Positions 6,680-63,560 of a stretch of DNA of 64,000 nt are shown piece after piece (the stretch's first letter is position 1; the number at the start of each line of letters is the position of its first letter). The DNA lies in the NCBI GenBank assembly GCA_965248705.1, contig CBDFJY010000002.1, positions 1,322,980 through 1,386,979 on the forward strand, read 5' to 3'. This stretch comes from Acidimicrobiia bacterium. GTDB lineage: Bacteria > Actinomycetota > Acidimicrobiia > Spongiisociales > ZC4RG35. Both the position numbers and the translations under genes were made by a program. Below the pieces are notes generated by a model, which worked only from the letters and a program-made list of their open reading frames with translations, made no database searches and had not been told where the DNA came from.

Positions 6680-8203
6680 TTGACCTTCGAGCTGGAGCTC
6701 CGCGGAATAACCAAGCGGTTCCCCGGCGTCGTTGCCAACGACGCGGTGGACTTGGCGGTGCGGCCCGGAGATATCCACGCCATTGTCGGCGAGAACGGGG
6801 CAGGCAAGACCACCCTGATGTCGTTGCTCTACGGACTGTTCCCCCCCGACGAGGGAGAGATCCTCATCAGGGGGGAACCGGTCCGTTTCTCATCGGCGTT
6901 GGACGCCATCGGGGCCGGGCTGGGCATGGTCCATCAGTCATTCAAACTGTTCCCGACCCTGAGCGTGGCCGACAATGTGGTGTTCCGCCAGGAACCCACC
7001 CGTGGCGGGCTCATCGACCGAGCAGCCAGCGCCGTCCGGGTCCGGGATCTGGCCGACCGGTACGGCTTGGCGGTGGATCCCGAGGCAGCGGTGGAGGATC
7101 TCCCGGTGGGAGTACTGCAGCGGGTAGAGATACTGAAGGCTCTCTACCGGGACGCGCAGGTCCTCATTCTGGATGAGCCCACCGCGGTGCTCACCCCCCA
7201 GGAACGGGACCAGCTGTTCGAGGTTATCCGGAGACTGCGTGACGCGGGGCGAACGATTCTCTTCATCACCCACAAGCTGGGGGAGGTGATGGCGATCTCC
7301 GACCGAGTGACCGTACTCCGCAACGGTCGGTCGGTGGCCAACCTGGTGACCGCCCAGACCAACCCGACCGAGATAACCTTGCATATGACCGGCCGGGCGG
7401 TCGACTTGCATCGGAGGGCCCCCGAACACGAGCCCGACCGGGTCGTGCTCGAGGTGGAGAGTCTCACCGTGCTGGGCGGCCATGGGCGGCCGGTAGTGGA
7501 TGACGCTAACTTCGAGGTGAGATCGGGGGAGATAGTGGGAATAGCCGGGGTGGCGGGAAACGGCCAGAGCGAGTTGATCGAGGCGCTCTGCGGGCTGCGG
7601 GAGGCGGCCTTTGGCTCGGTGACCCTATCGGGTAAGGACATCACCGGTGTCGACGTGGCCGGACGGCGAGATGCCGGACTGGCATACATACCCGAGGATC
7701 GCTACGGGGTGGGTACCACCCGTCAGGCATCGGTCTCCGAGAACCTCCTGATGGGTCATCACCGGAGAACGAAGGTCCAGCGTAAGGGCTGGTTCGACCG
7801 CCGCGCGGTCACCGAACTCACCCGACGGCTGGTGGAGGTGTTCGGGATCAAGGTGGGTTCGGTATCAGATCCGGTTTCAACGCTCTCGGGCGGGAACCTG
7901 CAGAAGGTGGTGGTGGCTCGGGAGATGGAATACGGTTCGCCGCTCCTCATCGCCGAGCAGCCCACCCGCGGACTCGACATCGGCGCCATCGAGTTCGTTC
8001 ACAGCCAGTTAGTGGATTACCGGGACCAGGGCGGAGCGGTGCTGATGGTGTCGGCCGAATTGTCGGAGATCCTAGCGCTGAGCACCCGCATCCTGGTGAT
8101 GTTCGAGGGGCGCATCGTGGCGAGTCTTGATCCCCGTAGCGTCGCCGAGCCCGAGATCGGCCTTTACATGACCGGAGCGCACCTAGAGGCAGCGGTTGCT
8201 TAA
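6680..8203 (+). CDS. ABC transporter ATP-binding protein with duplicated ATPase domains (nucleoside/sugar type)
   Basis: GENGAGKTTLMS (Walker A) in the first half and a second NBD (GVAGNGQSEL) in the second half. LSGGNLQKV signature motifs are present. Confidence 0.85.
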   Translation: MTFELELRGITKRFPGVVANDAVDLAVRPGDIHAIVGENGAGKTTLMSLLYGLFPPDEGEILIRGEPVRFSSALDAIGAGLGMVHQSFKLFPTLSVADNVVFRQEPTRGGLIDRAASAVRVRDLADRYGLAVDPEAAVEDLPVGVLQRVEILKALYRDAQVLILDEPTAVLTPQERDQLFEVIRRLRDAGRTILFITHKLGEVMAISDRVTVLRNGRSVANLVTAQTNPTEITLHMTGRAVDLHRRAPEHEPDRVVLEVESLTVLGGHGRPVVDDANFEVRSGEIVGIAGVAGNGQSELIEALCGLREAAFGSVTLSGKDITGVDVAGRRDAGLAYIPEDRYGVGTTRQASVSENLLMGHHRRTKVQRKGWFDRRAVTELTRRLVEVFGIKVGSVSDPVSTLSGGNLQKVVVAREMEYGSPLLIAEQPTRGLDIGAIEFVHSQLVDYRDQGGAVLMVSAELSEILALSTRILVMFEGRIVASLDPRSVAEPEIGLYMTGAHLEAAVA

Positions 8204-22770: not shown

Positions 22771-23729
22771 GCGAGATACTGGAAGCGGCCGCTCGCGCCG
22801 TGGGCGCCCCCGCCGAGTTGGTGCAGCGCTCCGCCGAAGCGCGCGCCGGCGCCAGCGGCGTCTCTGTCGAAGAAGTTCTGACCGCCTGGGCGGGAGGTGG
22901 AGTGGCGCCCCCCTCCGTTCCACCCGCGGCTCCCGTTCCACCCGCGGCTCCGGCGCCTGCCGCGGCTCCCGTTCCACCCGCGGCTCCGGCGCCTGCCGCG
23001 GCTCCCGTTCCACCCGCGGCTCCGGCGCCTGCCGCGGCTCCCGTTCCACCCGCGGCTCCGGCGCCTGCCGCGGCCCCCGCTCCTGCCGTACCATTTCCCC
23101 CGCCTGTGGCCCCTCCAGTCGCAGCGCCGCCTGCCGCAACCCCCGCACCCCAGCCGTCGCCCGCGCTTGGCGCCGCGCCGTCGGCGCCTACCGCCCCTGT
23201 CGCCCCTGCGAGGCCCGCCCTGGTCACGCCCGGGGTCGCGGCGGGCCCGCCCCCGGTGCTGAAAGGTCGGGTGGATCGGCCGTTCCGGTATCTGTTCGGC
23301 GCCACTGCCCTGTTGATCCTGTGCTTGGGCGCCACTCTGGTGGTCCCCGCCCTTTCGGAAACGGGCCGGGGAGCACTCCACTCCGAGATCCCCTTCACCG
23401 CGCCGGCGCGGGCGGGAAAAGAGATATATCTGGCGGAGGGATGTGCGGGCTGTCACACCCAGATGGTCCGTCCCATCGTCGCCGACGCCCAACTGGCCGC
23501 TCTGGCCGGGGTGGGCGGGGTTACCCTGTCCGACACCAATCAGGTGATCGGCCGCCAGCGTTACGGTCCCGACTTGGCCAACGTGGGCAGTCGGATGTCC
23601 CCCGAGGACATCGAGGCGGTGCTTTCCGGCGAGGGAGACCATCTTTCCTACCGGGGCGACTGGACTGATTCCCTGGTGGCATACCTGGTGGAGTCGCGAG
23701 TTTTGACCGAGGACGGATCCAGTGAGTGA
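22767..23729 (+). CDS. CcoO/FixO-like monoheme cytochrome c with an N-terminal cytoplasmic domain and Pro/Ala repeat linker
   Basis: [34 protein letters not shown] closely follows the CcoO signature (G.x.Y..GC..CHSQM.RP..GPDL..VGGRYS). One TM ([20 protein letters not shown]) lies upstream of the heme domain. Confidence 0.6.
22914..23075. repeat. perfect 36-bp tandem repeat, 4 copies plus a partial copy, in frame ([12 protein letters not shown])n
   Basis: cccgttccacccgcggctccggcgcctgccgcggct repeated head-to-tail at 22932, 22968, 23004 and 23040. The last copy has one substitution. Confidence 0.9.
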
Positions 23730-24729
23730 GAATTTGGCGAGAGCGGCCCAGGCCATGGGTGCGCCGGAGGTTTTGGTGCAACGCTCGGCCGAAGCCCGGT
23801 CCCAGGCAAGCGGGGTCCCCGTCGAAGAAATTCTGGCGGCCTGGGCGGGTGGTGGCTCGGCGCCGACGGCCTCCTCCGCGGCTCCGGCTGGCGCTCCCGA
23901 TCCCGTACCTCCCCCGGCCCCAACCCAACCAGCCGCGCCGCCGCCCGTGGTTACCGCGCCTGTGGTTACCCCGCCCGCGGCTCCGAGGCCGGTGTCCCCC
24001 TCACCCGCTCCGGCGGCCCCGGTCGTGGCGCCGCCTCTTCCTCCTCCCTCGGAGGTGAGCACCAAGGAAGCGATTTCCTTCCCGGTGGTGGTGTCGGTGC
24101 CCACCGCCCGCCTGACGGAGAGAACCTCATCCACCCTTCCCCGCTGGCTCGCCGCTCTCTTCCTGGTCGTTCCGGTGATAGGTCTGCTCTATCTGGCGGG
24201 AAACTCCGCCCGGGCGGGATGTGTGGAGGGGGGAGTGGAGTTGGCTGTCAACCGGATCAACTCCACGGTGGTCAACTGCGACGGCAGCGAGTTCACCGGT
24301 CGCGCCGACCAATCGGCGGGGATTTTCCTGGTGATGGGGGAAACGATTTTCGAAACTTGTGCCGGATGTCATGGGGCCACCGGTGAAGGGGGAGTGGGGC
24401 CGGCGCTCGCCACCGTGCTCTCCACTTTTTCGGCTTGCGCGGCCCACATCGAGTGGGTGACCCTGGCCACCGGCGGCTTTCAGAACGCCGGAGAAACCAC
24501 CTACGGAGATTTGGCCAAATCGGTGGGCGGCGGGGGCTTCATGCCCGGATTCGCGACCAGTAACAGCCCCGAAGAGATTGCTTCGGTGGTCTCCTTCGAG
24601 CGGATCCGCTTCGGCGGGGCTGATCCCGATCAAACGCTGATGGAGTGTGGATTGGTAGAGGGCGACACGGGTGAGAGTGACACGGGAGAAGGCGAGGCGC
24701 CTCCCGCGGAGGAGGAAGGAAGCGAATGA
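23722..24729 (+). CDS. membrane-anchored c-type cytochrome (CxxCH) paralogous in its N-terminus to 22767..23729
   Basis: CAGCHGATGEGGVGPAL (class I cytochrome c). The N-terminal 45 aa, [45 protein letters not shown], are about 70% identical to the N-terminus of the preceding protein. A Pro/Ala linker and one TM follow. Confidence 0.6.
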   Translation: MSENLARAAQAMGAPEVLVQRSAEARSQASGVPVEEILAAWAGGGSAPTASSAAPAGAPDPVPPPAPTQPAAPPPVVTAPVVTPPAAPRPVSPSPAPAAPVVAPPLPPPSEVSTKEAISFPVVVSVPTARLTERTSSTLPRWLAALFLVVPVIGLLYLAGNSARAGCVEGGVELAVNRINSTVVNCDGSEFTGRADQSAGIFLVMGETIFETCAGCHGATGEGGVGPALATVLSTFSACAAHIEWVTLATGGFQNAGETTYGDLAKSVGGGGFMPGFATSNSPEEIASVVSFERIRFGGADPDQTLMECGLVEGDTGESDTGEGEAPPAEEEGSE

Positions 24730-26342: not shown

Positions 26343-27389
26343 TTAGGAGGGGGGTGCTTCGCTTGATGGCGGCGGGTTTTCAAGTAGTCGGTATAGCTGT
26401 CGGGCGATGTACCGTTTGAGGCAGCGGCGGGTTTCTCGGGTGGTTTTGCCTTGGCTGGTGCGTTTGGTGATGTAGGCGCGGGTTTTGGGACAGTATCGGG
26501 CGCGGCTGATGGCGATGGTGTGGATGGCTTGGTTGAGTTGGCGGTCACCGCGTCGGTTCAGCCGGTGGCGGGTGTGTTGTCCCGATGAGGCTTCCAAGGG
26601 GGCTACGCCGGCTAGCCGAGCGAAGGCTGCTTCGTTGCGGCAGCGGCGAGGATGGGACCAGGCAATGAACACTTGGGCGGCTGTGATGGGGCCGATCCCG
26701 GGTTGTTGGAGCAGTTGGGGAGCTACGGTTTGGACTAGTTCGGTGATAGTTGTTTTGAGTTGGGCTGCTTCGGTGGTGAGTGCATTGATTCGCCGGGCGA
26801 GGGAACGCATGGCCTGTTTGGTGGCGGTGTGTTCGTTGGCCGGTGCTGATGTGAGTCGAAACCTGTGGCATTTAGCGACCAGAGCAGCAGTGGTAACACC
26901 TCGGAGTTGGTCTCTGAGATCGACTGGCGCGGTCACTAGGAGAGCTTTCAGTTCGTTGATCGCCGATGTTCTAGCTGTTATTGCGCCTCGTCGGGTGGTT
27001 TCCAACACTCGTAAGGCTTCTCGGTCTCCCCGAACTCGCGGTACAGAAGGTCGGAAGCGGCCCAGCGCCTGGCGGGCGGCCCGGCGAGCGTCCAGGGCAT
27101 CGGTCTTGGCGCCGTCGCCGCTGGGGGTGGGATCGTTGAACTCGGTCACCAGTTCCCCACTAGCGACCAAATAGGAGGTCACACCAGCTCCGTAACTGCC
27201 TGTGCCTTCCACAGACCATACCCGATCGGCGGCCTGGGTGTATTGGTCTACCCACTTCAACAACCGCTTGTATCCCAGCCCGCTGGTCTCGAACACCGCA
27301 GACGCCTGTTCTCCGGTGGTGGCGGTGTCCACTACCGACGCGGTGACCCGGTCACGATCCGGGTCGATCCCGATCACATGTTCTACCAA
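26343..27389 (-). mobile_element. IS110-family transposase gene (copy 1)
   Basis: ..HVIGIDPDRDRVTASVV.. DEDD N-terminal domain. C-terminal ..EASSGQHTRHRLNRRGDRQLNQAIHTIAISRAR.. is the Transposase_20-like region. The ATG-defined ORF extends to 27560, but the conserved core begins near 27389. Confidence 0.75.
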
Positions 27390-27474
27390 TGAGGCCAACA
27401 CAACAACCTTCTTTCCTTGTTTGCTACCTGGTTTGTCCAAGGAGGTGCGATCCGAACGGCAGGACTGTGATGAG

Positions 27475-28649
27475 TCACACCCCTTTGGGGTGGACAGGCT
27501 TCTGATCAGGCCAGCGCGGTACGCCAGGTCGGCGCTGGTGGTCAATGTCGGACAGATCATAGGAAAGACACCAAACCGGGTCAGTCAAATTGAGGGTCAC
27601 GACATCAATTCCAGCACCGTACCTGATAGCCTCCAAGGGCACCCGCCATATTCTCACAGTCAAATTGGGGGGGGGGGGTTGGAGGTGTTTGTAGACGCGG
27701 TTGGAGATGTGGCGTTTGAGGTTGCGGATGGCTTCTTTGGGGGTTTTGCCTCGGGCGAGTTGTTTTTGGTAGTAGCGGTGTCCTTCGCTGCCGGGTTGGG
27801 AGATTTGGGTGAGGGCTGCGGTGTAGAGGGCTTGGTTGATGCGGCGGTTTCCTCCTCGGTTGAGTCGATGGCGTGTTATGCGTCCCGAGCTGGCTTCCAG
27901 TGGTGCGGTGTCGTTGGCCATGGCAAATTTGGCTTTGGTGGGGTAGTGGGCGGGGTTCCCGACCTGGGCGATGATCTCGGCGGCGGTGAGGTTGCCGATG
28001 CCGTGGATGTGGGTGAGGGTGGCGCCGGTGGTTTTGACCACCGTGGTGATCTGTTGGGTGAGTTCTTGGATCTGTCGGCTCAGGGAGCGTATGTGGCGGG
28101 TTCTTTGTTTGGCGATCCGGGCGCGGGTGGTGGTGTCACGGGCGAGCATTCGTGTCACGCGGTCAACAGCGGACGGGTTGGTGAGAGCGGTGGGAAGTTT
28201 GGGATGATCGCCGCGCAGTTGGGTGAGATCGGCGTGGAGCCGGTTGATCTGGCGGGTGCGGGTTTCGACCAGTTCACGGCGGTATCCGACCAAAAGCCGC
28301 AGGTCTTCTGTGATACCGTCGGGGCGGCTACCCGGGCGATTAACAAAGCGTCAGTGGAATCGTTCTTGACAGGCGTGCGTTGTCTCCGCCGTTGCCTACT
28401 GGTCATCTGTGGTGGTACTTCCACCACCTCGATACCCGCTTCCACAAGCGCCAAAGCCGCGGGACGTCCGTAATGACCGGACCCTTCGATAGCTACCCGC
28501 CCGGCGCCGGTTTCCCGCGCCCAGGCCACCAACCGGGCACGACCCCCGGAGGTGTTAGGGACACAACGGGTCCCGACCTGGCGCAGGGCCTGGTCGATAA
28601 CACAGCCCATCAAAGTATCCTTGTGCGAGTCGATTCCAATAACAAACAT
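27475..28649 (-). pseudogene. IS110-family transposase (copy 2), split by a frameshift
   Basis: The N-terminal frame reads MFVIGIDSHKDTLMGCVI..ALLIARVAAP and runs to junk after about 28300. The C-terminal frame reads ..LLVGYRRELVETRTRQINRLHADL..EASSGRITRHRLNRGGNRRINQALY... A single-nucleotide shift near the gccgcccc run at about 28300 would join them. The C-terminus reads through a C12 tract (PPPP). Confidence 0.7.
27667..27678. repeat. G12 homopolymer tract
   Basis: caaattgggggggggggggttggagg. It encodes PPPP on the minus strand inside the IS110 copy 2 C-terminus. With 11 G the frame would stop two codons later (..PPPPI*), which resembles the copy 1 C-terminus. Confidence 0.9.
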
Positions 28650-29172: not shown

Positions 29173-29592
29173 TCAGCTCTTTTGGAAGGCCATCATCGCC
29201 AGGGGCCGGAAGCTGAGCTCCACCGCCTCATAGATCTCTCCCAACAGCAGATCCAGGGACTCGGGGTTCACCTCGGAGACCGCCAGCCGGCCGGTCAGTA
29301 TCACCGCTCCCTCCCGGTCGAGCGCAAAGTGACATTGCCACAGGCGGTGGTTGCGCAACAGACAAAGCCGGTACACCTCAGCCTGGTTGGCGGGAGGGGC
29401 GGGCAGCACGTAGGCCTCGGCAATGATGCTCCGGTCTCCCACCGTCCACCAGACGGTGGTGGCCGATCGGACGCTCTGGCGCATCCGCACCGCCCAGCGA
29501 CCGTCCACCTGCTCGGAGTACTCGACATCGCTTTCGGGATCCTCCACCCACAAGGAGATGGTCTGAACGAGAGTTGCGGCGGGGTCGCTCAT
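29173..29592 (-). CDS. YbjN-like protein (putative sensory-transduction/chaperone-like fold)
   Basis: Start trimmed to MSDPAATLVQTISLWVEDPE... The family call is weak and made from memory. Confidence 0.4.
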   Translation of the reverse strand: MSDPAATLVQTISLWVEDPESDVEYSEQVDGRWAVRMRQSVRSATTVWWTVGDRSIIAEAYVLPAPPANQAEVYRLCLLRNHRLWQCHFALDREGAVILTGRLAVSEVNPESLDLLLGEIYEAVELSFRPLAMMAFQKS

Positions 29593-30809
29593 CTCCCAAA
29601 GAGTACGCTTCGATAGAGTTCTAATAGGCGGTCGGAGGCGACTTGCCAGGAGTACTGGCTGGCCCATTCCACCGCCCGTTCGGACATGGCGGCGCGCAGT
29701 TCGTCATCCTCCAGCACCTTGGCTATGGCCGCCACGTATCCCTCCGGTTCCCATCCTTCCACCAACAAGCCCGAGCCGCCGTCCTCCACGACATACATGA
29801 GCCCTCCTTTCCGGGCGGCCACCACCGGCAGCCCGCATGCCTGCGCCTCGGCGACCACCAACCCGAAGGACTCGCTGCGAGAGGGCGCCACCAACACATC
29901 CGCCGCCCGGTAGAAGTCGGCGAGCCGGTTGTGGCCGACCGGGGGGTGGAAGCGGACCGTCTCCGGTCCCAGGTCGTCGGCGGCGCTGCGCAGAGCTTGC
30001 ATCTCCCGCTGTCCCTCGGGTCCGCTCGGTCCCCCCACTATCAGCAGCCGGAGATCCGCAATGCGTTCCCGAGCCAGGGCCACCGCCGCCAGAGCCACGT
30101 CCGGTCCTTTCAGGGATTGAATTCTTCCCACGAATAGTGCCAGCGGCCCCTCCCCCAAGCCCAGCTTCGCCCGGGCTTCGGCCTGGTCTCCCGGCTGAAA
30201 GTGGGTGCGGTTGACCCCCGGAGGGGAGACGCACAACTTGGTGGGGTCGGCCCCGTAGTGGTCCATCAGGTCGTCCGCCTCGAAAGGGGTGGACGCCACC
30301 ACGCAGTTGGCGCTGGAAATCAGAGTCTGCTCGGCGGCGATTCGCCGCGGGTCGGTGGGGGATTGATCCGCCCGTCGGGTGGCGTCCTTCACTCTGCCCA
30401 GAGTGTGAAAAGAGTTCGCCATGGGGATGTTCAACCTCTGTTTGACCTCCAGCGCCGCCCATCCCGAAAGCCAGTAATGGCTGTGAACCAGGTCGGGCAG
30501 GGCCTCCCCGGCTTCCAACCGCTCCAACAGCGCCTTGCTGAATTCCTCCACATGCGGGAACTGCGCTTCGATGGAGAGCGATCGAAGCGGTCCGGCCTCC
30601 AAGTGGTGGACCCGATAGCCGGGCGCCACCTCCACCGTCTCTTCAAGCTCGGGGTGATCCTTGCGAGTGAACACGTCCACCACCACTTCCTGGGCGGCCA
30701 TGGTTGCGGAGAGCTCGTGCAGGTAGACATTCATGCCACCCGCGTCGCCCTCCCCGGGATCCCGGAGCGGAGAGGTGTGCATGGAAATAAAAGCGACCCG
30801 GGCGATCAT
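29589..30809 (-). CDS. mshA: D-inositol-3-phosphate glycosyltransferase MshA (GT4), mycothiol biosynthesis
   Basis: MIARVAFISMHTSPLRDPGEGDAGGMNVYLHEL is the characteristic MshA N-terminus (HTSPL..PG.GDAGGMNVY). The C-terminal EAQACGLPVVA is the GT4 motif. Confidence 0.8.
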   Translation of the reverse strand: MIARVAFISMHTSPLRDPGEGDAGGMNVYLHELSATMAAQEVVVDVFTRKDHPELEETVEVAPGYRVHHLEAGPLRSLSIEAQFPHVEEFSKALLERLEAGEALPDLVHSHYWLSGWAALEVKQRLNIPMANSFHTLGRVKDATRRADQSPTDPRRIAAEQTLISSANCVVASTPFEADDLMDHYGADPTKLCVSPPGVNRTHFQPGDQAEARAKLGLGEGPLALFVGRIQSLKGPDVALAAVALARERIADLRLLIVGGPSGPEGQREMQALRSAADDLGPETVRFHPPVGHNRLADFYRAADVLVAPSRSESFGLVVAEAQACGLPVVAARKGGLMYVVEDGGSGLLVEGWEPEGYVAAIAKVLEDDELRAAMSERAVEWASQYSWQVASDRLLELYRSVLFGR

Positions 30810-52586: not shown

Positions 52587-52654
52587 CGTACCCAGAAAGG
52601 ATATCGCCCACCGGTTGGGGGATAACCCGGTCCGGCTTTGGTAGCTTTGTGGCG

Positions 52655-53680
52655 ATGAGCACCAAGCTGACCCGGTTCAGTCACGGCGCCGGCTGAGGCT
52701 GCAAGCTCGGATCAGCCGAGCTGGCGCAGGTTCTGCGCCCCTTGCAGGGTCATCCCGCCTATTCCTCCCCCCATCTGCTAGTGGGGGTGGATACCCGTGA
52801 CGATGCAGGCGTATATCGCCTGTCGGATGGACGCGTCCTCATCCAGACGGTCGATTTTTTCACTCCGGTGGTGGATAGCCCCGAGGATTGGGGGCGGATT
52901 GCCGCCGCCAACGCTTTGTCCGATATCTACGCCATGGGCGGGACGCCGCTCACTGCTCTCCAGTTGGTGTGCTGGCCAGCACAATCCCTATCACTGGAGA
53001 TCCTGACAACGGTTGTCCGGGGAGGAGCGGAGGTGATGGCTCGAGCGGGATGCACGGTGGTGGGCGGCCACTCCGTTGACGATCCTGAGCCAAAATACGG
53101 GTTCGCGGTGACCGGGATCGCTACGGAGGTGACCACCAACTCCGGCGCCCGACCGGGCGATCGGCTAGTGCTAACCAAGCCGCTCGGAACCGGGATCATC
53201 ACCACCGCCCACAAAGCGGGTGATTGCCCCCCGTCCTCCCTGGATGCGGCGGTGGAGGCAATGATCTCCCTCAACGACCGAGCTTCTCGGGCGATGATCT
53301 CGGTCGGAGTTTCCGCCGCCACCGATGTCACCGGCTACGGATTGGCGGGCCACCTCCTTTCCATGCTGGACGCCTCGGAGGCGGCGGCCCGGATAGAGAC
53401 CGCCCGGCTGCCGCTCCTGGCGGGGGCCGAACAAATCCTGGCCGCCGGATTCTATCCGGGGGGAAGCCTTCGCAATCTGGAGGCGGCCGGCGACCGGCTC
53501 CGGGGCGGAAACGAGATGTCCCGACGTCTGGTGTGCGACGCGCAGACCAGCGGGGGACTGCTGATGTCGGTTCACCCATCCAAGCTGGCCGAACTCAAGG
53601 GCAGGCTCAAAGAAGAAGGCGTGCGCGGGACGGTGATTGGAGCGGTGGTGGAGGGTAAACCTTCGGTGGAGCTGTTCTAG
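52655..53680 (+). CDS. selD: selenide, water dikinase SelD, selenocysteine-containing (in-frame TGA at 52694..52696)
   Basis: Manual translation from the ATG at 52655 gives MSTKLTRFSHGAG-U-GCKLGSAELAQVL..LLVGVDTRDDAGVY..VDFFTPVVD..GRIAAANALSDIYAMGG. This aligns position-for-position with the E. coli SelD N-terminus (..YSHGAGCGCKISPKVL..LLVGNETRDDAAVY..), with the TGA at the Cys17 position. The ORF track's 52742 start would delete the catalytic loop. Confidence 0.85.
52705..52721 (+). promoter_or_regulatory. SECIS-like hairpin 11 nt downstream of the selD UGA
   Basis: Perfect stem gctcgg / ccgagc with loop atcag, extendable to agctcgg/ccgagct. This is the expected position for a bacterial SECIS. 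Confidence 0.55.
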
Positions 53681-54852
53681 CCCAGAATCGCCTGAAGACC
53701 GGGTTCAAACTTTTCGGGCTCCAACAGAAAGGCGTCGTGTCCCTTGTCGGAGTGGACGGTGTGCCAGAGAACCGGCACTCCCGCCTCGTTGAGCGTCTTG
53801 ACCATGGTCTCCTGCTCCTCGGGGTAGAAGCAGACGTCGGAGTCGATGGTGAAGATCAGCCACTGTTGGTGGCGACAGCGGCTCAGCAGCTCCTCGACGC
53901 TATCTCCACCCACCTCTTTGAGCAGATTGAACTTCTGCCAGATCCGCACCACCCGCAGATAGGTGTTGGCGTCGAATCGTTCCACGAACTTTTGCCCCTG
54001 ATGCAGCATGTAGGACTCCATGGGATGCTGCACCCGGTATCCGCCCAGGTCTTCCTGCTCGATAATCTCGTGGCGGATCCGCTCCCGGAAAGCCGACAGG
54101 GAGACGAAGGTCTTGTGGCTGATCATCCGGGCCAGGGCCAGTCCCAGGTCCGGCCGGGTCCCCCCGTAGAAGTCGCCGCCCGCGAAATGTGGATCGGTGA
54201 CGATGGCGAACATCTGCTCGAAGTTGTGAATCACTTGCAGGGTGGTTACCTCGAGGCCCGCGGCGATGGGGATCACCACCTTCACCTGGTCGGGATAGCG
54301 GGTACCTAACACCAACGCCATCAAACCGCCCACCGAGCCTCCCGTGCAGGCGTGGATCCGCTCCACGCCGAGATGATCCAAGAGTTTCATCTGAGAGTCG
54401 ACGATATCGGTGATGGTCAGGGCGGGGAAAGCCGAGCCGTAGGGGCGGCCGGTGGAAGGGTTGGTGGAGGACGGACCGGTGGAGCCATAGCAGCCACCCA
54501 GGTAGTTGACGCACAAAACCGCGTATTTGTCGGTGTCCAGAGCCCGTCCCGGTCCGATGAACCCGTCCCACCAGCCCACCTGCATCTCTTCGGTCCACTG
54601 GGCGCCCACCCCGGGCACCGAGGGATTGAATCCGGCCGCGTGCTGGCTTCCGGTGAGGGCGTGGAATACCAGAATGACGTTGTCCCGGGCCTCGTTGAGC
54701 TCCCCGTACAGCTCATAGGCCAGGGTTACTTCGGGAATGGTCTTGCCGCCCAAAGTGGTGTAAGGATCGTCCAGACGAAGAAACCGGGTCTCGGTGCGCG
54801 TCAGGTCTGGTGGGATGGGGGAACTGTTTGTCACCGACTCTCCTTTACTCAT
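53677..54852 (-). CDS. metX: homoserine O-acetyltransferase MetX
   Basis: ..IPEVTLAYELYGELN.. MetX N-terminus and an alpha/beta-hydrolase nucleophile elbow. Alternative GTG start at 54834 behind AAGGAGAG. The 3' end overlaps the selD 3' end by 4 nt (convergent). Confidence 0.85.
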   Translation of the reverse strand: MSKGESVTNSSPIPPDLTRTETRFLRLDDPYTTLGGKTIPEVTLAYELYGELNEARDNVILVFHALTGSQHAAGFNPSVPGVGAQWTEEMQVGWWDGFIGPGRALDTDKYAVLCVNYLGGCYGSTGPSSTNPSTGRPYGSAFPALTITDIVDSQMKLLDHLGVERIHACTGGSVGGLMALVLGTRYPDQVKVVIPIAAGLEVTTLQVIHNFEQMFAIVTDPHFAGGDFYGGTRPDLGLALARMISHKTFVSLSAFRERIRHEIIEQEDLGGYRVQHPMESYMLHQGQKFVERFDANTYLRVVRIWQKFNLLKEVGGDSVEELLSRCRHQQWLIFTIDSDVCFYPEEQETMVKTLNEAGVPVLWHTVHSDKGHDAFLLEPEKFEPGLQAILG

Positions 54853-54938
54853 CGGTCAGGCGTTGGCACCGTGTCGGCTGGCCGACCGGTTGCCGCGGTT
54901 TCACGGGGCCTGATCCCTCCACCGCTCTGGATGAGCGT
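54848..54938 (-). ncRNA. SAM-I (S-box) riboswitch candidate in the metX leader
   Basis: Minus-strand RNA: ACGCUCAUCCAGAGCGGUGGAGGGAUCAGGCCCCGUGAAACCGCGGCAACCGGUCGGCCAGCCGACACGGUGCCAACGCCUGACCGAUGAG. It matches the SAM-I consensus CUUAUCAAGAGNGGNGGAGGGANNGGCCCNAUGAANCCCGGCAACC..GGUGCNAANUCC..AGAUGAG. The P1 arms are CUCAUC/GAUGAG. The P4 hairpin is reduced to about 5 nt. Confidence 0.65.
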
Positions 54939-55108: not shown

Positions 55109-56236
55109 CTAGTGCATTTGGGGGTGGTTGCTCACCCAAACGGTATTCCCTTCGGGATCGGTTACTCCCGTCAGGTCGAGAGGCAGGCTTGTTCGAGAGG
55201 CTGGCATCTTCATCACTGCCAGGCCCTGAGCGGTCAGATAATCTTCCCACTCTCCTATGTCGTCCGCCCACAGCACGGTCTCTCTTGATCCGGAGGGCGG
55301 CGAATTGGCTTGCCTTTTGCGGAGGATGAGGTAGGCGCCGCCGATCGCCATCCACACAAACCCGCGGGTGGCCATCCGGGGCGCGGTGATCTCATGCAGG
55401 CCGAGGGCCGTGGAGTAAAAGTTGGACATCTTTTCCAGGTCGTCCACCCAGACAATCATGCTCATCCCTCCTCGGCGGCTGAGCGACGGCGCCTCTTCCC
55501 CGGCCATTACCGTTTTCTTGGCTTGCGCCAGGCTGAATCGGCCGTGGGTTACCTCTCTTCCCACGATCACCCCGGCCAGTTTGCGGCCCGACACCGACAA
55601 CCGGGCCAGGGCGCTGAGGTCATCCACCGATCCCACGCCGCCCGCCACTATCACCGGCTCGGGCACCAATCCCAGTACTTCCCCGTAGATGTCCAGGTCG
55701 ACTGGTTCCTTCAGCGGATCACGCCCGGCTTCGGCCACCAAAAAGGAGGCCACTCCCGCCGAAGACATCTCCAAGAGCACCTCTTCGAGGTAGCGTCCGC
55801 TTCGTTCCGACCACCCCTGGGTGACGATCTCATGGTCGGACCGGACATCGAGGGACACCGTGATCTTGCCTGGATAGTCCCGGCAGAGGTCCCAAATCAT
55901 GATCTGGTCTTCGATGGCGGCGGTTCCCATCACCACTCTCCAGGCGCCGTTTCGGATCAACCGGGCGGCCTCGAGATGCGAGCGGATTCCTCCCGCCACC
56001 TGTACCGGTGTCTCCAGTTCCGAGACGATGGCGTCGATCAGGGGCCGGTTCTGGTAGTCGCCCAACGCCGCAGCGTTGAGATCCACGACATGCAAATAGT
56101 CGGCGCCCTGATTGACCCAGCTCTTGGCGCGGCTCAGGGGATCGTTGTCCAAGACAATGGCCTGGGTTACGTCACCGGTGGGGAGGCGGACCGATCTGCC
56201 GCCCAGAATGTTTATTCGCCCATAGACGTCCATGCT
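55109..56236 (-). CDS. HisA-like (beta/alpha)8 isomerase domain fused to a C-terminal VOC/glyoxalase-like domain
   Basis: Start trimmed to MDVYGRINILGGRSVRLPTGD. HisA-like motifs HVVDLNAA, VAGGIRS, SLDVR, VIVAGGVGS and GVIVGRE. The first catalytic Asp of HisA (IDL) reads N (INIL). The C-terminal 120 aa (MSMIVWVDDLEKMSNFYSTALGLHE..) look VOC-like. Confidence 0.6.
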   Translation of the reverse strand, partial: SMDVYGRINILGGRSVRLPTGDVTQAIVLDNDPLSRAKSWVNQGADYLHVVDLNAAALGDYQNRPLIDAIVSELETPVQVAGGIRSHLEAARLIRNGAWRVVMGTAAIEDQIMIWDLCRDYPGKITVSLDVRSDHEIVTQGWSERSGRYLEEVLLEMSSAGVASFLVAEAGRDPLKEPVDLDIYGEVLGLVPEPVIVAGGVGSVDDLSALARLSVSGRKLAGVIVGREVTHGRFSLAQAKKTVMAGEEAPSLSRRGGMSMIVWVDDLEKMSNFYSTALGLHEITAPRMATRGFVWMAIGGAYLILRKRQANSPPSGSRETVLWADDIGEWEDYLTAQGLAVMKMPASRTSLPLDLTGVTDPEGNTVWVSNHPQMH

Positions 56237-56282
56237 GTTAAGAAGAATACCCGCTCTCGGGCTGGTTTTCCATACCAAATTG

Positions 56283-58169
56283 CTACAGAGGTTCGAGTTC
56301 CAAAGCCTGCTCGGCCGATTCCAGGGTTTGATTTCCCGCCAGCACCGGCAGGAACAGGTCGCCATAGCGGGAAAGACGCTCCCAGAGGTTGGTGATATCA
56401 ATGTCGCCGTTGCGGAAATGTCCCACCTCTTCCCAGAGCAGGGGAACAGAGACGGGAGCGCCGGGAAGGGGGCGTACCGAGTACACCGAGGCGATCGTCT
56501 GGCCGAAAGCGTTGCGGTTGTGGTCGATGAACACCTTCCCCGCCCGCTTGGGCTTGTCCCAGGCGATGGTCAGGTCGTCGGGGTTGGCCGCCACCAACAA
56601 CCCGGCCACTGCTCCCACGAAACGCCGCACCCGCTCATAGGTGTGGACGGGCCGGAGGGGAAGGTAGACGTGCATGCCGCGGCTTCCCGAAAGCTTGGCG
56701 ACCGACCGCAGCCCCAGTTGCTCCAGCGCCATCCCCAGCAGGCGGGTTCCCGCCACCACCTGGGACCATGAGGAGCCCTCGGCCGGATCGAAGTCGAATA
56801 CTGCCCAGTCGGGGTATCCGAGGTCCGGGTGGCGGGAATGAAAAGGGTGGGTTTCCACACACCCCATGTTGGCGAACCACATCAGGGACTCGGGGTGGTC
56901 GGCGCAGAGAAAGTCGATATTCCCGCCCGCCGAGTGCGAGCCCACCGGGAGGGTACGCATCCACTCGGGCTGGTGTCCCGGCGCTCGCTTCTCATAAAAA
57001 GACGGTCCCCCGATCCCGTCTGGATAGCGGGACATCGAGAGGGGGCGGTCCCGGAGATGGGGGAGGAGCGTGGCGGCTATCGAGGAGTAGTAGGTGATCA
57101 GATCACCCTTGGTGTAGCCCTCGGGAAAAAACGGCTTCGACAGGTTGGAGAGCCGTAGGGGAAGAGTGGCGTCGGTTGGCCGGTAGCGGTCTTCCACCGG
57201 CTCGACCGGCGTGGGGTCGGGGAAGTCCACCAGCCCCGATCCGGCCGGCAGGCGGGTGGACGGCTCTTCTTCCAGCCGGTGGAGAACCGAGCGAAGTTCG
57301 GCGCCGATGGCCAGGTGGCTCTTCCACTCCCGCGCCTCGGAGATGACCACCATCGCCAATCCCGTCTCATGGGCGGCCTCGGCCAGAGGGCCGATCCGAA
57401 GAGTCCCCTCTCCGTAGGGAAGATGGCTGATCTCCCCGGCGGGTCCGAATCGGTTGTCGGTGAACTGGGTGTGGAGGGGAGAGAGCATCCAGGCGGGGAA
57501 GGAGTCTTTTATGAAGGCCATCACCGTTTTGAAGCGCTCTGTTCCGGTCAGTCCGCCGCCCGACATGGCGTGAAGATGCGCCCAGTCGATCACCGGTCTC
57601 ACGAAGGGGAACTCCGCAGCCAGCAGGGCAATGTCGCCCAGCGTTCCGAAAGAGCGGTTATTGCCGGCGGTCTCGATCCCCAGTCCCACCCCCAGGTGGG
57701 CCACTTTGGGCGCCAGCATCTCCAAACGTTCTCGGATCGTCTCCATTACCTCGTGCGGCGGACGACCCTTCAGATGACCGGCGTGGGCGACGATCAAGGG
57801 AGCGCCCAGTTCCCGTCCGAGTTTCATGGTGTGCTCCAAAGCCGAGAGGCACATGCGGGCCTTCTCGGGGTCTTCGACGGTCAGCACCGCGAAATAGGGA
57901 GCGTGCGCAGAGAGCCGAAATCCCCGGGCGGCGGCCTGTGTTCCGAACTGGGCGCACCGCGCCTCTTTCCAAGGGAAACCTTTGACGAACGAAAGCTCAT
58001 AGGATGAGATATTCTGCTTTGCTAGGCCGTCCAGGAAAGCTCCGTCGTCGGCGCCCCGAGGAGGTGGGGGGCCCGACACTCCGAACAGGATGGGTTCCCG
58101 GCGTTTGCGGGTGGTGGCCATGGCCGCTATTAATGGTTGCCGAGGCACCGTCCAACCCCGCGCGGGCAA
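56283..58169 (-). CDS. fusion protein: AP endonuclease IV-like TIM-barrel domain plus LigD-type primase-polymerase (PolDom)
   Basis: N-terminal ..LSAHAPYFAVLT.. and ..VAHAGH.. resemble Nfo (HAPYLINL). The C-terminal half contains ..GSRGMHVYLPLRP.. and ..KVFIDHNRNAFGQT.., typical of the NHEJ LigD polymerase domain. Confidence 0.6.
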   Translation of the reverse strand: MPARGWTVPRQPLIAAMATTRKRREPILFGVSGPPPPRGADDGAFLDGLAKQNISSYELSFVKGFPWKEARCAQFGTQAAARGFRLSAHAPYFAVLTVEDPEKARMCLSALEHTMKLGRELGAPLIVAHAGHLKGRPPHEVMETIRERLEMLAPKVAHLGVGLGIETAGNNRSFGTLGDIALLAAEFPFVRPVIDWAHLHAMSGGGLTGTERFKTVMAFIKDSFPAWMLSPLHTQFTDNRFGPAGEISHLPYGEGTLRIGPLAEAAHETGLAMVVISEAREWKSHLAIGAELRSVLHRLEEEPSTRLPAGSGLVDFPDPTPVEPVEDRYRPTDATLPLRLSNLSKPFFPEGYTKGDLITYYSSIAATLLPHLRDRPLSMSRYPDGIGGPSFYEKRAPGHQPEWMRTLPVGSHSAGGNIDFLCADHPESLMWFANMGCVETHPFHSRHPDLGYPDWAVFDFDPAEGSSWSQVVAGTRLLGMALEQLGLRSVAKLSGSRGMHVYLPLRPVHTYERVRRFVGAVAGLLVAANPDDLTIAWDKPKRAGKVFIDHNRNAFGQTIASVYSVRPLPGAPVSVPLLWEEVGHFRNGDIDITNLWERLSRYGDLFLPVLAGNQTLESAEQALELEPL

Positions 58170-58568: not shown

Positions 58569-58709
58569 GTTGCACGGGCTAAGGTTTTGGATGGGGCAGG
58601 AAAGAGAAAGCACATTGATGAACATGCTTAAGCGTCCAAAATGGCGTTCACCGGATCACCGCCGGGTGATAGGGGGCGAGGTGATGACCTGATGGGAGGT
58701 GATGACCTG

Positions 58710-59576
58710 ATGGATGGAGACATCCGGTTCGGGATCTGCACCGATCAGTCGATGCCCTACGCCACTTTGGTGGACCGGTGGCGCTACTTTGAGGAACTGG
58801 GGTTCGACAGTGTCTGGGACTGTGACCATTTCCTCCGGCCCAGCAATCCCTCCCATCCCTACTTCGAGGGGTGGACTCTGTTGGCCGCCCTTGCCACCCA
58901 AACCACCCGGATCCGGGTGGGGGTGCTGGTGGGAAGCAACACTTTCCGTCACCCCGCGCTCTTGGCGCAGCAGGCCATCACCATCGACCACATCTCGGAG
59001 GGGCGCTTGGAGTTCGGTTTCGGCGCCGGATGGTTTGTGGAGGAACATCAGCGGTTCGGGATACCTTTCGGTGATCCGCCGGTGCTGGTCGAAAGGTTCC
59101 GAGAAGCGGTCGAGATTATCGACTCGCTCCTCTGTGGCCGGGAAGTCACCTATGAGGGTCGGCACTATCAGCTGAGTGAGGCCCGGCTCCGGCCCCGGCC
59201 GGTGCAGTCTCCCCGTCCGCCTCTCACCCTGGGCGCACACCGTCCTCGTATGCTGGCGATTTGCGCGCGGTTCGCCGACCGGTGGAACTCGTTCGGGACG
59301 GTGGAGGAGATCGCCGAGCGCAATCGGCTGCTGGATCAGGCCTGTGGGAGGATCGGGAGGGATCCCACCGAGATCATCCGCTCCTTCTACGGGTGGTCAT
59401 CCAACATGGCCGCCCAGGGTCTGCCCGACCCGTGGTCGAGCCCCGACGCCTTCACCGAGGTGGTGGGCAGATACGTCGAGGCGGGGGTGAACGAGTTCAT
59501 TCTGGATCAACCCCGTCCCGAACAGTTCAAGATCGCCGAACGGATCGTCTCGGACGTCATCGAGCCGACTCGTTGA
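58710..59576 (+). CDS. LLM-class (luciferase-like monooxygenase family) flavin/F420-dependent oxidoreductase, tandem copy 1
   Basis: MDGDIRFGI..VDRWRYFEELGFDSVWDCDHF..GW..LAAL..T..IR.G.LV..N..RHPALLAQQA.T.DH.S.GRLE.G.G.GW is the LLM fold pattern. Start chosen at the ATG after the GGAGGTGA RBS. Confidence 0.7.
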   Translation: MDGDIRFGICTDQSMPYATLVDRWRYFEELGFDSVWDCDHFLRPSNPSHPYFEGWTLLAALATQTTRIRVGVLVGSNTFRHPALLAQQAITIDHISEGRLEFGFGAGWFVEEHQRFGIPFGDPPVLVERFREAVEIIDSLLCGREVTYEGRHYQLSEARLRPRPVQSPRPPLTLGAHRPRMLAICARFADRWNSFGTVEEIAERNRLLDQACGRIGRDPTEIIRSFYGWSSNMAAQGLPDPWSSPDAFTEVVGRYVEAGVNEFILDQPRPEQFKIAERIVSDVIEPTR

Positions 59577-59791
59577 GTGGCGACGGGCCGTTTGGCCGGC
59601 GCTGTAGGGCGGGCATCCGCAAATTGTTTTGTGTTATGTTGGTTATGACATTGGAAATGGCCGAATGATCGTGCCGCTCGGCCCCAACGGCGTGCGCAGC
59701 GCGGGGGGAACCACCGATGCGCACCGTGGATGGCGCACCGAAGGCGGTTCGAGGAAAACCGGTTTGTGATGAGAGTCGAGGTGATGCTCTG

Positions 59792-60655
59792 GTGAAAGGA
59801 ATGAGGTTCGGTGTTTACACCCCCCAGTGGAAGCCGTATCGGGTTCTGGTGGAGAATTGGCGGTATTTCGAAGAATTGGGGTTCGACAGCGTGTGGCCCT
59901 GTGATCATTTCCACAATCCCGGGCATCCGGACAAGCCCTTTTTCGAGGGGTGGACTGTACTGGCCGCCCTGGCTGCCGAAACCTCCCGGATCAGGGTGGG
60001 AGTGCTGGTGAGCAGCAACACGTTCCGCCATCCGGCGCTCCTGGCGCAGCAGGCCATCACCCTGGATCACATCTCCGAAGGGCGGCTCGACTTTGGGATC
60101 GGCGCCGGGTGGTACGAGTTGGAGCACGAGTGGTTCAGGATCCCCCTGTATGAGCCACGGGTGCGGGTGGACCGCTTTTCCGAGGCGATGGAGATCATCG
60201 ATCCCCTGATGCGCGGGGAGACCGTCTCCTATGAGGGTCGGCACTATCAGCTGAGTGAGGCCCGGCTCCGTCCCCGCTCCGTTCAGTTGCCCCGCCCACC
60301 GTTCATGCTGGCCGGCCACCGCCCCCGGATGCTGGGGATCTGCGCGCGGTACGCGGACGCGTGGAACTCCACCGGGACGGTGGAGGATCTCACCGAACGT
60401 AACCGCCTGGTTGACGAGGCCTGTCGGAGGATCGGGAGGGATCCGACCGAGATAGTCCGTTCCTATCTGGGAGGAAACTCCACCCTGGGCCCCCAGGGTC
60501 TGCCCGATATGTGGTCGAGCCCCGATGCCTTCTCGGAGGTGGTGGGGCGATACGCCGAAGCGGGGGTGAACGAGTTTATCTTCGTCGAACCCCTGCCCGA
60601 GCAGTACAAGATGGTCGAGCGGATCGCCTCTGAGGTGATCGAGCCGAGCCGTTGA
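59792..60655 (+). CDS. LLM-class oxidoreductase, tandem copy 2
   Basis: Paralog of copy 1 (..NWRYFEELGFDSVWPCDHF..). GTG start 7 nt after AGGTGA. The annotated 59717 start adds unrelated leader residues. Confidence 0.7.
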   Translation: MKGMRFGVYTPQWKPYRVLVENWRYFEELGFDSVWPCDHFHNPGHPDKPFFEGWTVLAALAAETSRIRVGVLVSSNTFRHPALLAQQAITLDHISEGRLDFGIGAGWYELEHEWFRIPLYEPRVRVDRFSEAMEIIDPLMRGETVSYEGRHYQLSEARLRPRSVQLPRPPFMLAGHRPRMLGICARYADAWNSTGTVEDLTERNRLVDEACRRIGRDPTEIVRSYLGGNSTLGPQGLPDMWSSPDAFSEVVGRYAEAGVNEFIFVEPLPEQYKMVERIASEVIEPSR

Positions 60656-60706
60656 GTGCGACTGCCCGGCGGGCCCGTTTGTGATGAGAGTGGAGGCGAT
60701 GCTCCG

Positions 60707-61570
60707 GTGAAGGGATTGAAGTTCGGACTCACCGTGACTCCGTCCGAGCCGTATCCGGTCCTGGCGAAGAAGTGGCGGTACTTCGAGGAGTTGGGGTTCG
60801 ACAGCATCTGGCATTGTGATCATCTCCTTCGTCCCAACGATCCGACCGGTCCCCTCTTCGAGGCGTGGACTCTGCTGGCCGCCCTGGCCACCGAAACCTC
60901 CCGGATCCGGGTGGGTGTGATGGTGACCAGCAACGTCCTCCGTCATCCCGCCCTCCTGGCGCAAGAGGCTATCACCGTCGATCACATCTCCGAGGGGCGC
61001 CTGGAGCTGGGGATTGGCTGCGGGTGGTTCGAGGAGGAACACAAGCGGTTCAGGATCCCCCTCTATGAGCCACGGGTTCGGGTGGACCGATTTGAGGAGG
61101 CCTTGGAGATCATCGACCCCCTGCTGAGGGGGGAGACCGTCTCCTATGAGGGTCGGCACTATCAGCTGAGCGAGGCCCGGCTCCGTCCTATGCCGGTGCA
61201 GTCGCCCCGCCCGCCCCTCACCCTGGCCGCCCACCGTCCCCGGATGCTTCGGATCTGCTCCCGCTATGCGGACCGGTGGAATTCCTCAGGAACGATCGAG
61301 GAGATGGCCGGACGGAACCGGCTCTTGGACGAGGCCTGTGAGAGAATCGGGAGGGATCCGACCGAGATCATCCGTTCTTTCCGCGCGGGAGTCTCCAACG
61401 TGGGCAGCCGGGGCCTGCCCGATATGTGGTCGAGCCCCGATGCTTTCACGGAGGTGGTGGGGATATTCGGAGAGGCCGGCGCGACCGAGTTCATCATGGA
61501 CCAGCCCCGTCCCGACCAGTACCAGACGGTCGAGCGGATCGCGTCGGAGGTCATCGAACCCAGTCGTTAA
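60707..61570 (+). CDS. LLM-class oxidoreductase, tandem copy 3
   Basis: Paralog. GTG start (VKGLKFGL) overlaps the uORF stop. Confidence 0.7.
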   Translation: MKGLKFGLTVTPSEPYPVLAKKWRYFEELGFDSIWHCDHLLRPNDPTGPLFEAWTLLAALATETSRIRVGVMVTSNVLRHPALLAQEAITVDHISEGRLELGIGCGWFEEEHKRFRIPLYEPRVRVDRFEEALEIIDPLLRGETVSYEGRHYQLSEARLRPMPVQSPRPPLTLAAHRPRMLRICSRYADRWNSSGTIEEMAGRNRLLDEACERIGRDPTEIIRSFRAGVSNVGSRGLPDMWSSPDAFTEVVGIFGEAGATEFIMDQPRPDQYQTVERIASEVIEPSR

Positions 61571-61609
61571 GGTGGAACCGTCTGTGATGAGAGTGAAGGT
61601 GATGTTCCG

Positions 61610-62473
61610 ATGAAGGGCTTTAGAGTCGGAATTTCCGCCATGCAGTACGAGCCGTATCCGGTTCTCCGGAAGAAGTGGCGATATTTTGAGGAGTTGGGGT
61701 TCGAGAGCATTTGGCACTGTGATCATTTGCTTTTCACCTCGGATTCGACCGTTCCCCTCTTCGAGGGTTGGACTGTCCTGGCCGCCCTGTCCGCCGAAAC
61801 CTCCCGGATCCGGCTGGGGGTGCTGGTGAGCAGCAATGTCCTCCGTCATCCCGCTCTCCTTGCCCAGGAGGCCATCACCGTCGATCACATCTCCGAGGGG
61901 CGCCTGGAAGTGGGGATTGGCTGCGGGTGGTTCGAGGAGGAACACGAGCGGTTCGGAATCCCGCTGTATGAGCCGGGGGTTCGGGTGGACCGATTTGAGG
62001 AGGCCTTGGAGATCATCGACCCGCTGTTGCGGGGAGAGACCGTCTCCTATGAGGGTCGGCACTATCAGTTGGCAGAGGCCCGGCTCCGTCCTCTCCCCGT
62101 TCAGTTGCCCCGCCCGCCCCTCACCCTGGCCGCCCACGGTCCCCGCATGCTTCGGATCTGCGCCCGCTACGCGGACCGGTGGAACTCCACCGGGACAGTG
62201 GAGGAGATGGCCGGACGGAACCGGCTCCTGGACGAGGTGTGTCGCAAGATCGGGAGGGATCCCACCGGGATCATCCGCTCCCTCCGCTTATCGATCCCCA
62301 AATTAGTCTCCCGGGGTCTGCCCGATCCGTGGTCGAGCGCCGGTGCCTTCACGGAGGTGGTGGGCAGATACGGAGAGGCCGGCGTGGACGAGTTCATTAT
62401 CGACCAGCCCCGTCCCGACCAGTACAAGACGGCCGAGCGAATCGCGCTGGAGGTCATCGAACCGAGTGGTTGA
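61610..62473 (+). CDS. LLM-class oxidoreductase, tandem copy 4
   Basis: Paralog. ATG start (MKGFRVGI) overlaps the uORF stop (ATGA). Confidence 0.75.
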   Translation: MKGFRVGISAMQYEPYPVLRKKWRYFEELGFESIWHCDHLLFTSDSTVPLFEGWTVLAALSAETSRIRLGVLVSSNVLRHPALLAQEAITVDHISEGRLEVGIGCGWFEEEHERFGIPLYEPGVRVDRFEEALEIIDPLLRGETVSYEGRHYQLAEARLRPLPVQLPRPPLTLAAHGPRMLRICARYADRWNSTGTVEEMAGRNRLLDEVCRKIGRDPTGIIRSLRLSIPKLVSRGLPDPWSSAGAFTEVVGRYGEAGVDEFIIDQPRPDQYKTAERIALEVIEPSG

Positions 62474-62681
62474 GTTGGGACTGGCGGGTGGGCTGGAGGG
62501 CCATCGTGGGGACGGAGAACTCGGTGTATGTTGGTGACGACATTGGAAGAGGCCGAGTGATCGGGTTGCCGGGGCCATGCCGGCGGGTGCGGCTCGGGTA
62601 GGATCACCGATGCGCGCCGCGGGTGGCGGTAGAGAATATGATCGGGGAATGCCCGTTTGTAACGAGAGTGGAGGTGATGGT

Positions 62682-63560
62682 GTGACGAAAGGACTGAGGT
62701 TCGGTATTACCGTCGTTCAGTCGGATCCGTATCCGGTTCTGGCCGAGAAGTGGCGGTACTTCGAGGAGTTGGGGTTCGACAGCATCTGGCACTGCGACCA
62801 CCTCCTCCGTTCCTTGGATCCGACCGCTCCCCTCTTCGAGGCATGGACCCTGCTGGCCGCCCTGGCCGCCGAGACTTCCCGGATCCGGGTGGGAGCGCTG
62901 GTGAGCAGCAACGTCCTCCGCCATCCGGCGCTCCTGGCGCAGCAGGCCATCACGGTCGATCACATCTCCGAGGGCCGCCTGGAAGTGGGGATTGGCTGCG
63001 GGTGGTTCGAGGAGGAGCACCGCCGGTTCGGGATCCCCCTCTATGAGCCGGGGGTGCGGGTGGACCGCTTCTCCGAGGCCCTGGAGATCATCGACCTCTT
63101 GCTGGTGGGGAAGACGGTCTCCCATGGGGGGCGGCATTATCAGTTGAGCGAGGCCCGGCTCCGTCCCCGCCCCGTGCAGTTGCCCCGCCCGCCGTTCATG
63201 CTGGCCGCTCACGGTCCCCGGATGCTGCGGATCTGCGCACGCTATGCGGACCGGTGGAACTCGTTCGGGACGGTGGAGGAGATGGCCCGAAGGAACCGCC
63301 TGCTGGACGAGGCCTGTGAGAGGATCGGGAGGGATCCCACCGGGATAAGCCGTTCCCTCTGCGTCGAGGACTCCACCAACCTGGCCTCCCAGGGCCTGCC
63401 GGACATATGGTCAAGCCCCGGCGGCTTCGCCGAAGTGGCGGGGAGGTACGCCGAGGCAGGGGTGAACGAGTTCATCATCGAACAGCCCCGGCCCGACCAG
63501 CACAAGACGGTCGAGCGGATCGTTTCAGAGGTGATCGAGCCGGGACGTCGATCTTTGTGA
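62682..63560 (+). CDS. LLM-class oxidoreductase, tandem copy 5
   Basis: Paralog. GTG start (VTKGLRFGI). The leader is degenerated (ATG to ACG). Confidence 0.65.
   Translation: MTKGLRFGITVVQSDPYPVLAEKWRYFEELGFDSIWHCDHLLRSLDPTAPLFEAWTLLAALAAETSRIRVGALVSSNVLRHPALLAQQAITVDHISEGRLEVGIGCGWFEEEHRRFGIPLYEPGVRVDRFSEALEIIDLLLVGKTVSHGGRHYQLSEARLRPRPVQLPRPPFMLAAHGPRMLRICARYADRWNSFGTVEEMARRNRLLDEACERIGRDPTGISRSLCVEDSTNLASQGLPDIWSSPGGFAEVAGRYAEAGVNEFIIEQPRPDQHKTVERIVSEVIEPGRRSL

Follow-up and report, generated by a model that had tools for sequence, protein, structure and literature searches.

Our analysis indicates that the selD gene of the window (the whole 64-kb stretch of DNA studied here) very probably encodes a full-length SelD with a UGA-encoded selenocysteine (Sec), and that this UGA would be decoded by standard SelB/SECIS recoding, with the second of two adjacent downstream hairpins (H2) as the most likely SelB site and the first (H1) as an accessory stem. 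The features concerned are collected in Table 1.

Table 1. Positions of the selD features in the window
Feature	Position	Strand	Remarks
TGGTAGCTT motif	52639..52647	+	last base 7 nt 5' of the selD ATG
Full selD CDS	52655..53680	+	341 codons; predicted Sec at codon 14; TAG stop 53678-53680
selD start ATG	52655..52657	+	UGA 13 codons downstream; ATG at the equivalent site in 8/8 close relatives
In-frame TGA, predicted Sec14 at the catalytic site	52694..52696	+	column of E. coli Cys17
Hairpin H1	52704..52722	+	agctcgg/atcag/ccgagct = 52704-52710/52711-52715/52716-52722; 7 perfect bp; -10.8 kcal/mol alone
Hairpin H2	52723..52739	+	ggcgcag/gtt/ctgcgcc; 7 perfect bp; loop GUU (G52730, U52731); -11.3 kcal/mol alone
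Truncated selD ORF	52742..53680	+	TTG start; 312 aa; without the catalytic loop; in the mechanical ORF list and in public data

The selD frame and its in-frame UGA

Read directly on the plus strand, the selD frame runs from the ATG through MSTKLTRFSHGAG to the TGA (52694-52696), continues with GCKLGSAELAQVL... (GCKLGSAELAQVLRPLQGHPAY...) and stays open to the TAG at 53678-53680; the TGA at codon 14 is the single one in frame among the 341 codons. For tests of the 341-aa product, Cys was substituted at codon 14. This product matched the selD model TIGR00476 with 391.8 bits (cut-off 125) over model positions 1-310 of 311, beginning at residue 4, and NF002098 with 367 bits (cut-off 299). Its residues 2-334 aligned with residues 5-337 of E. 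coli SelD (PDB 3u0o) with an E value of 2e-84. SHGAG-U-GCK of the window lies on SHGAG-C-GCK of E. coli, which pairs the TGA with Cys17 and Lys17 with Lys20. Residues D50, D67, N86, D90 and D224 align with D51, D68, N87, D91 and D227 of the E. coli enzyme, which we take to be its metal/ATP-binding residues. The domains PF00586 and PF02769 (PurM-like AIRS and AIRS_C) are recorded for an identical public product, P0001. Judged by its sequence, 52655-53680 is an end-to-end SelD (selenide, water dikinase), for which selenophosphate synthesis is predicted.

The initial annotation had located the TGA at the catalytic Cys/Sec position of selD, and the family score, the Cys17 column and the homologues all bear this out: in the column of codon 14, TGA is found in 97 of 161 homologues and a Cys codon (TGC/TGT) in 64. 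It had also proposed an alignment to SelD homologues with TGA read as U. In that alignment the N-terminus is covered from residues 2-4, at position 1 of the TIGR00476 model, and both the HMM match and the alignment with E. coli SelD start within these residues of the 341-aa product. The length of selD is uniform in the window gene and its relatives (341-344 codons), each consisting of one unbroken frame apart from the TGA. Upstream of the start codon, the core GGTAGCTTT of the TGGTAGCTT motif is present in the window and in six of the eight close relatives, and with one mismatch (GGTAGTTTT) in L163. An E. coli-type promoter scan returned nothing at this motif, which may serve as the extended -10 element of a leaderless selD transcript.

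Among the genome loci, TGA occurs in 25 of 80 and TGC/TGT in 55 of 80; the best genome match, an Acidimicrobiia MAG with 62% identity, has the TGA. As the query of this search contained a Cys-type N-terminal pattern, a second search, of metagenome contigs, used residues 33-341 only and was blind to the UGA region; 71 of the 80 metagenome loci had TGA. Eight syntenic close relatives (71-82% protein identity), which have the gene order mgtE, greA, selD, metX, hisA, ligD in common, retain without exception the ATG, the 13 N-terminal codons, the TGA, H1 and H2. Since the TGA and the frame are conserved in relatives, and UGA is a normal stop, a sequencing error, a pseudogene and an alternative genetic code are all unlikely. 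The alternative code was ruled out because TGA terminates 12 of the 23 annotated genes in the window, and the sequencing error because the TGA is repeated in eight relatives from different samples. When every TGA of the window was scanned for a coding signal on both sides together with a model-compliant hairpin, the selD site alone was credible. These observations support selD as a selenoprotein gene, with Sec predicted at the UGA.

Two adjacent hairpins and the probable site of SelB binding

H2 directly abuts the 3' end of H1, and both are part of the minimum-energy fold. The hairpin agctcgg-atcag-ccgagct described 3' of the TGA in the initial annotation is H1, and it is real, with seven perfect pairs, and conserved. 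Its distance of 11 nt past the TGA holds when the T is counted as base 1 and the stem opens on the 11th base; counted from the last base of the TGA, the stem begins 7 nt later. The end point given there (52721) misses the final base of H1 (52722) and leaves H2 outside. The further claim, that a SECIS-like hairpin occupies the position of bacterial SECIS elements, stands for the neighbouring H2, which passes the bacterial SECIS (bSECIS) model, and fails for H1, which does not.

[quoted passage not shown] H1 passes on loop size (AUCAG, 5 nt), stem (7 bp) and energy (-10.8 kcal/mol), and fails on loop start (A, U; no G) and on the spacing between UGA and loop (14 nt). H2 passes throughout, with a 3-nt GUU loop that begins with G and then U, 7 bp, a spacing of 33 nt and -11.3 kcal/mol. 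Its stem is separated from the UGA by 26 nt, and its conserved G lies 34 nt after the UGA, a spacing which exceeds both the norm for the conserved SECIS loop G, typically ~20 nt after the UGA (PMC4605307), and that of G23 in fdhF (PMC8659212), yet is inside the range of 16-37 nt.

Compared with shuffled sequence, the fold of the 61-nt stretch (63% GC) had no excess stability (z = -0.99). As this fold is not unusually stable for GC-rich sequence, the case for the hairpins rests on comparative evidence and not on thermodynamics. An Rfam search of 52640-52800 at E <= 10 gave no relevant family and two chance snoRNA-like matches.

When 26 Sec-type sequences were aligned without gaps, 84.1% of the H2 cells were paired, in contrast to 37.7%, the background level, in 55 Cys-type sequences, and four of the seven H2 pairs had double changes. 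For the structure as a whole, pairing in the 26 Sec-type sequences amounted to 71.7%, above every slid control (29-39%). H2 with all seven pairs and a GU loop was present in 45 of the 97 Sec-type homologues and in none of the 64 Cys-type ones; the Fisher p value of ~1e-12 for this difference treats related sequences as independent, and such p values overstate independence because the homologues are phylogenetically related. The H2 stem occurs in 22 variants with double compensatory changes, e.g. GGCGCAG/CUGCGCC, GGCUCAC/GUGAGCC, CGCUCAG/CUGAGCG and GUCGCAG/CUGCGAC. Most of the Sec-type genes without H2 bear another, single hairpin, GGGUCC-GGG-GGACCC (encoded LGPGDL), located at +12 to +15, which fits the model.

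H1, taken in the register of the window, was paired about equally in Sec-type (59%) and Cys-type (56%) sequences. At least six of its seven pairs were present in 38 of the 97 Sec-type homologues vs five of the 64 Cys-type ones, and compensated variants (AGCUCAG/CUGAGCU, AGAUCGG/CCGAUCU, AGCUCGC/GCGAGUU) were found as well. Sec-type homologues with H2 and without H1 numbered 13, those with H1 and without H2 six. A near relative with a Cys-type SelD (54% identity), the metagenome locus L085, has kept H1 (6/7 pairs) and lost H2 (4/7), a pattern to be expected if the SECIS decayed after a Sec-to-Cys change.

The RNAalifold consensus consists of H1 and H2 together. A lower stem that would close a three-way junction (UGA..CUGCA/UGCAG..UCA) appeared in single-sequence folds and was rejected, as it is absent from this consensus. 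Synonymous changes across the nine closest genes are suppressed in codons 15-29, where six of 13 conserved codons vary vs 130 of 155 elsewhere (p = 0.004); the sites that do vary there lie in a loop or, at codon 15, just 5' of H1, or else change a G-C pair to G-U. To judge from these patterns, H1 is a selected structure within the clade of the window. H2 is most likely the SECIS core, i.e. the SelB-binding stem-loop, and H1 a conserved accessory stem.

In the mechanism that we propose, the UGA would be recoded as Sec by the standard bacterial pathway. [quoted passage not shown] The element bound would most likely be H2, and H1 would occupy the 33-nt gap from the UGA to the H2 loop as an accessory stem. 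Both the actual insertion of Sec and the binding of SelB to H2 are what we infer from the sequence comparisons.

As the UGA and the SECIS are conserved, selA, selB and selC are expected elsewhere in the genome. An ARAGORN scan of the 64-kb window detected no tRNA whatsoever, hence no tRNA-Sec (the program does detect tRNA-SeC in the loci L041 and L064). An Rfam scan of the window at gathering thresholds gave a SAM riboswitch alone, with no tRNA-Sec and no SECIS family, and none of the 40 window ORFs scanned against NCBIfam or Pfam matched SelA or SelB. L041 and L064, which are more distant relatives, have tRNA-SeC (3339-3432 and 6608-6706, respectively) a few kb upstream of a Sec-type selD; neither the window nor its close relatives showed such a linkage of tRNA-SeC and selD. 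A Sec-dependent SelD would mark the organism as a selenocysteine user, and predicts not only selA, selB and selC but also further selenoproteins elsewhere in the genome.

There is little probability that H1 is itself the SelB-binding SECIS, with H2 accessory or unrelated. H1 does have a spacing similar to that of the E. coli element, with G52715 of its loop 19 nt after the UGA vs the ~20 nt rule (PMC4605307), but this G is not among the first two loop positions, the loops of the relatives (CCC, CCA, UCA, CCU) have no conserved G, and the spacing from UGA to loop is below 16 nt. Some bSECIS elements are known to deviate from the consensus model (PMC13188914), and H1 is conserved and covarying in the clade of the window; however, its pairing in the window register is alike in Cys-type and Sec-type sequences, H2 without H1 outnumbers H1 without H2 among the Sec-type homologues, and the Cys-type L085 is the locus that kept H1 and lost H2.

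Two further explanations dispense with Sec altogether, and we consider both of them highly improbable. In one, the TGA is a true stop and the gene either a pseudogene or a short SelD that starts at 52742 without the catalytic loop, as in the public gene calls; the Sec machinery was indeed not found in the 64-kb window. This is hard to reconcile with the 13 upstream codons and the TGA kept in frame in eight relatives from different samples (71-82% protein identity), with a TGA exactly on the catalytic Cys column and a UGA-specific SECIS hairpin downstream, and with a product from 52742 that would have no equivalents of Cys17 and Lys20 although the rest of the gene is one frame of the same length as in the relatives (341-344 codons). 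In the other, of just as slight a probability, the UGA is read through without Sec machinery, e.g. by near-cognate Trp or Cys decoding aided by the downstream structures, comparable to insect SPS1-UGA. Stable stems beside a UGA can promote such Sec-independent read-through in insect SPS genes (PMC4561486), and the presence of Sec machinery is here an expectation; against this, the G-U signature of the H2 loop is that of SelB-binding SECIS elements. H2 moreover accompanies TGA in many bacterial phyla for which Sec use is known, and in L041 and L064 a tRNA-SeC gene is a neighbour of selD. We know of no Sec-independent read-through of the insect SPS1-UGA kind documented in bacteria, which also counts against this explanation. 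We thus retain Sec insertion directed by H2 as the preferred reading.

Truncated gene calls and neighbouring genes

As the initial annotation had remarked, the ORF track opens selD at 52742, the position of a TTG in the mechanical ORF list. Its warning that annotation would mis-start the gene proved right: the sole public form, P0001, is the 312-aa product from 52742 (100% identity, 91% query coverage), located on a contig of 2,562,588 bp in the public protein collection. A start at this position does remove the catalytic loop, as had been argued, and gives a product without the equivalents of Cys17 and Lys20. The 25 nearest public relatives (69-82% identity) are products of 299-328 aa with 72-93% coverage; more distant Cys-type SelD proteins of Acidimicrobiia are full length in the public collection.

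Gene callers shorten selD because the UGA is read as a stop. In six of the eight close relatives (L161-L163, L166-L168) the false start chosen is the GUG of the H2 loop, +36 nt from the TGA. As the H2 loop of the window is GUU and not GUG, the start call slid to the TTG at 52742. The value of our finding is foremost practical: this gene and at least two dozen of its closest relatives are stored in N-terminally shortened form, without the Sec/Lys loop, and the lack of this loop makes predictions of function and selenium use for these Acidimicrobiia-like genomes wrong unless UGA recoding is considered.

Several other features of the window deserve mention. Convergent with selD is metX (homoserine O-acetyltransferase; 53677-54852, minus strand), directly upstream of which lies the SAM riboswitch (RF00162, 71.9 bits, 54846-54937, minus strand). 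The mechanical ATG of metX (54852) falls within the 3' end of the riboswitch. As the MetX HMM match begins at about residues 19-32, the true metX start is probably further downstream. The HisA-like gene (55109-56401, minus strand) contains extra sequence, and in its relatives the Pfam domains His_biosynth and Glyoxalase are recorded. The neighbouring gene (56283-58169, minus strand) combines a LigD polymerase/primase domain with an N-terminal part that resembles AP endonuclease 2.

A run of ORFs on the plus strand (58632-63560) includes an F420-dependent LLM-class oxidoreductase (one paralogue tested); in L161, a syntenic relative, five Bac_luciferase genes stand side by side. An MshA-like mycothiol glycosyltransferase gene (29589-30809, minus strand) scored 421.7 bits, below the curated cut-off of 462.5 bits. 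Together, the MshA-like gene and the run with the F420-dependent oxidoreductase point, as far as sequence matches can tell, to an Actinomycetota host. The window also carries an IS110-family transposase gene (26343-27584, minus strand; NF033542, 168 bits) and a candidate gene, a 550-aa ORF (22536-24188, minus strand) with a high G+C content at each of the three codon positions, which overlaps several long ORFs and had no NCBIfam or Pfam match.

Relation to known SelD genes and SECIS elements

Sec-containing SelD (Sec-SelD) has been described as the prokaryotic selenoprotein family with the second-widest distribution (PMC13188914). It is known e.g. from Pasteurellales, Deltaproteobacteria and Clostridiales (PMC13188914; PMC4561486), and its bSECIS elements have already been modelled (PMC4561486). 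The window gene resembles the known bacterial Sec-SelD genes in its enzyme family, in the predicted Sec of the N-terminal loop, in a putative SECIS within the coding sequence after the UGA, and in the same mis-start error. Unlike the examples cited, it belongs to Actinomycetota, and its best relatives are Acidimicrobiia MAGs. Its loop reads U-G-C-K, compared with C-G-C-K in E. coli, whereas most of the Sec forms fetched have U-A-[C/S/A]-K.

For the SelD genes of Clostridiales, a tandem bSECIS was described in Supplementary Material S6 of Mariotti et al. 2015 (PMC4561486), in which stem2 is downstream of stem1 and not nested; according to the same supplement, stem2 by itself conforms to the bSECIS model, with an apex of 3-4 nt. 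By this description (PMC4561486), the window is alike, with H1 directly followed by H2 and a 3-nt GUN loop, and differs in that the loci found here are of Actinomycetota, Gemmatimonadota and Chloroflexota. Since the stem1/stem2 layout is already described in that supplement for Clostridiales SelD, the tandem layout reported here is not new. Both Sec-SelD and the tandem-stem SECIS were known before, and conceptually our results bring nothing new. It seems doubtful to us that the H1 and H2 tandem forms a distinct SECIS class of SelD genes of Actinomycetota, Gemmatimonadota and some Chloroflexota, with H1 as a required part. Were this the case, H1 might act by compaction of the 33-nt spacer, which is unusually long, or by pausing of the ribosome, and thereby allow the distal G-U triloop hairpin to present SelB to the A site.

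In the SECIS of E. coli fdhF, a 17-nt upper stem-loop begins 11 nt after the UGA and has a bulged U17 and G23/U24 in its loop (PMC8659212). Like this element, H2 is a stem-loop that lies downstream of the UGA inside the gene and has G-U in a small loop at its apex. It differs from fdhF in the position of the G-U (37/38 in the window), in lacking a bulged U, and in the separate hairpin that stands in the spacer. The apex of H2, GCAGGUUCUGC, presumably resembles GCAGGUCUGC of fdhF. H2 would work like the fdhF SECIS by comparison of these features, but it is not of the exact fdhF type.

With the Cys-type SelD of E. coli (3u0o), the window protein shares the conserved Lys and the Asp/Asn active-site residues within the aligned residues 2-334. 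What distinguishes the two is that Cys17 of E. coli is encoded by TGC and has no SECIS, in keeping with the Cys-type homologues, none of which has H2 (0/64), whereas the window gene carries at this site a TGA that is followed by H1 and H2.
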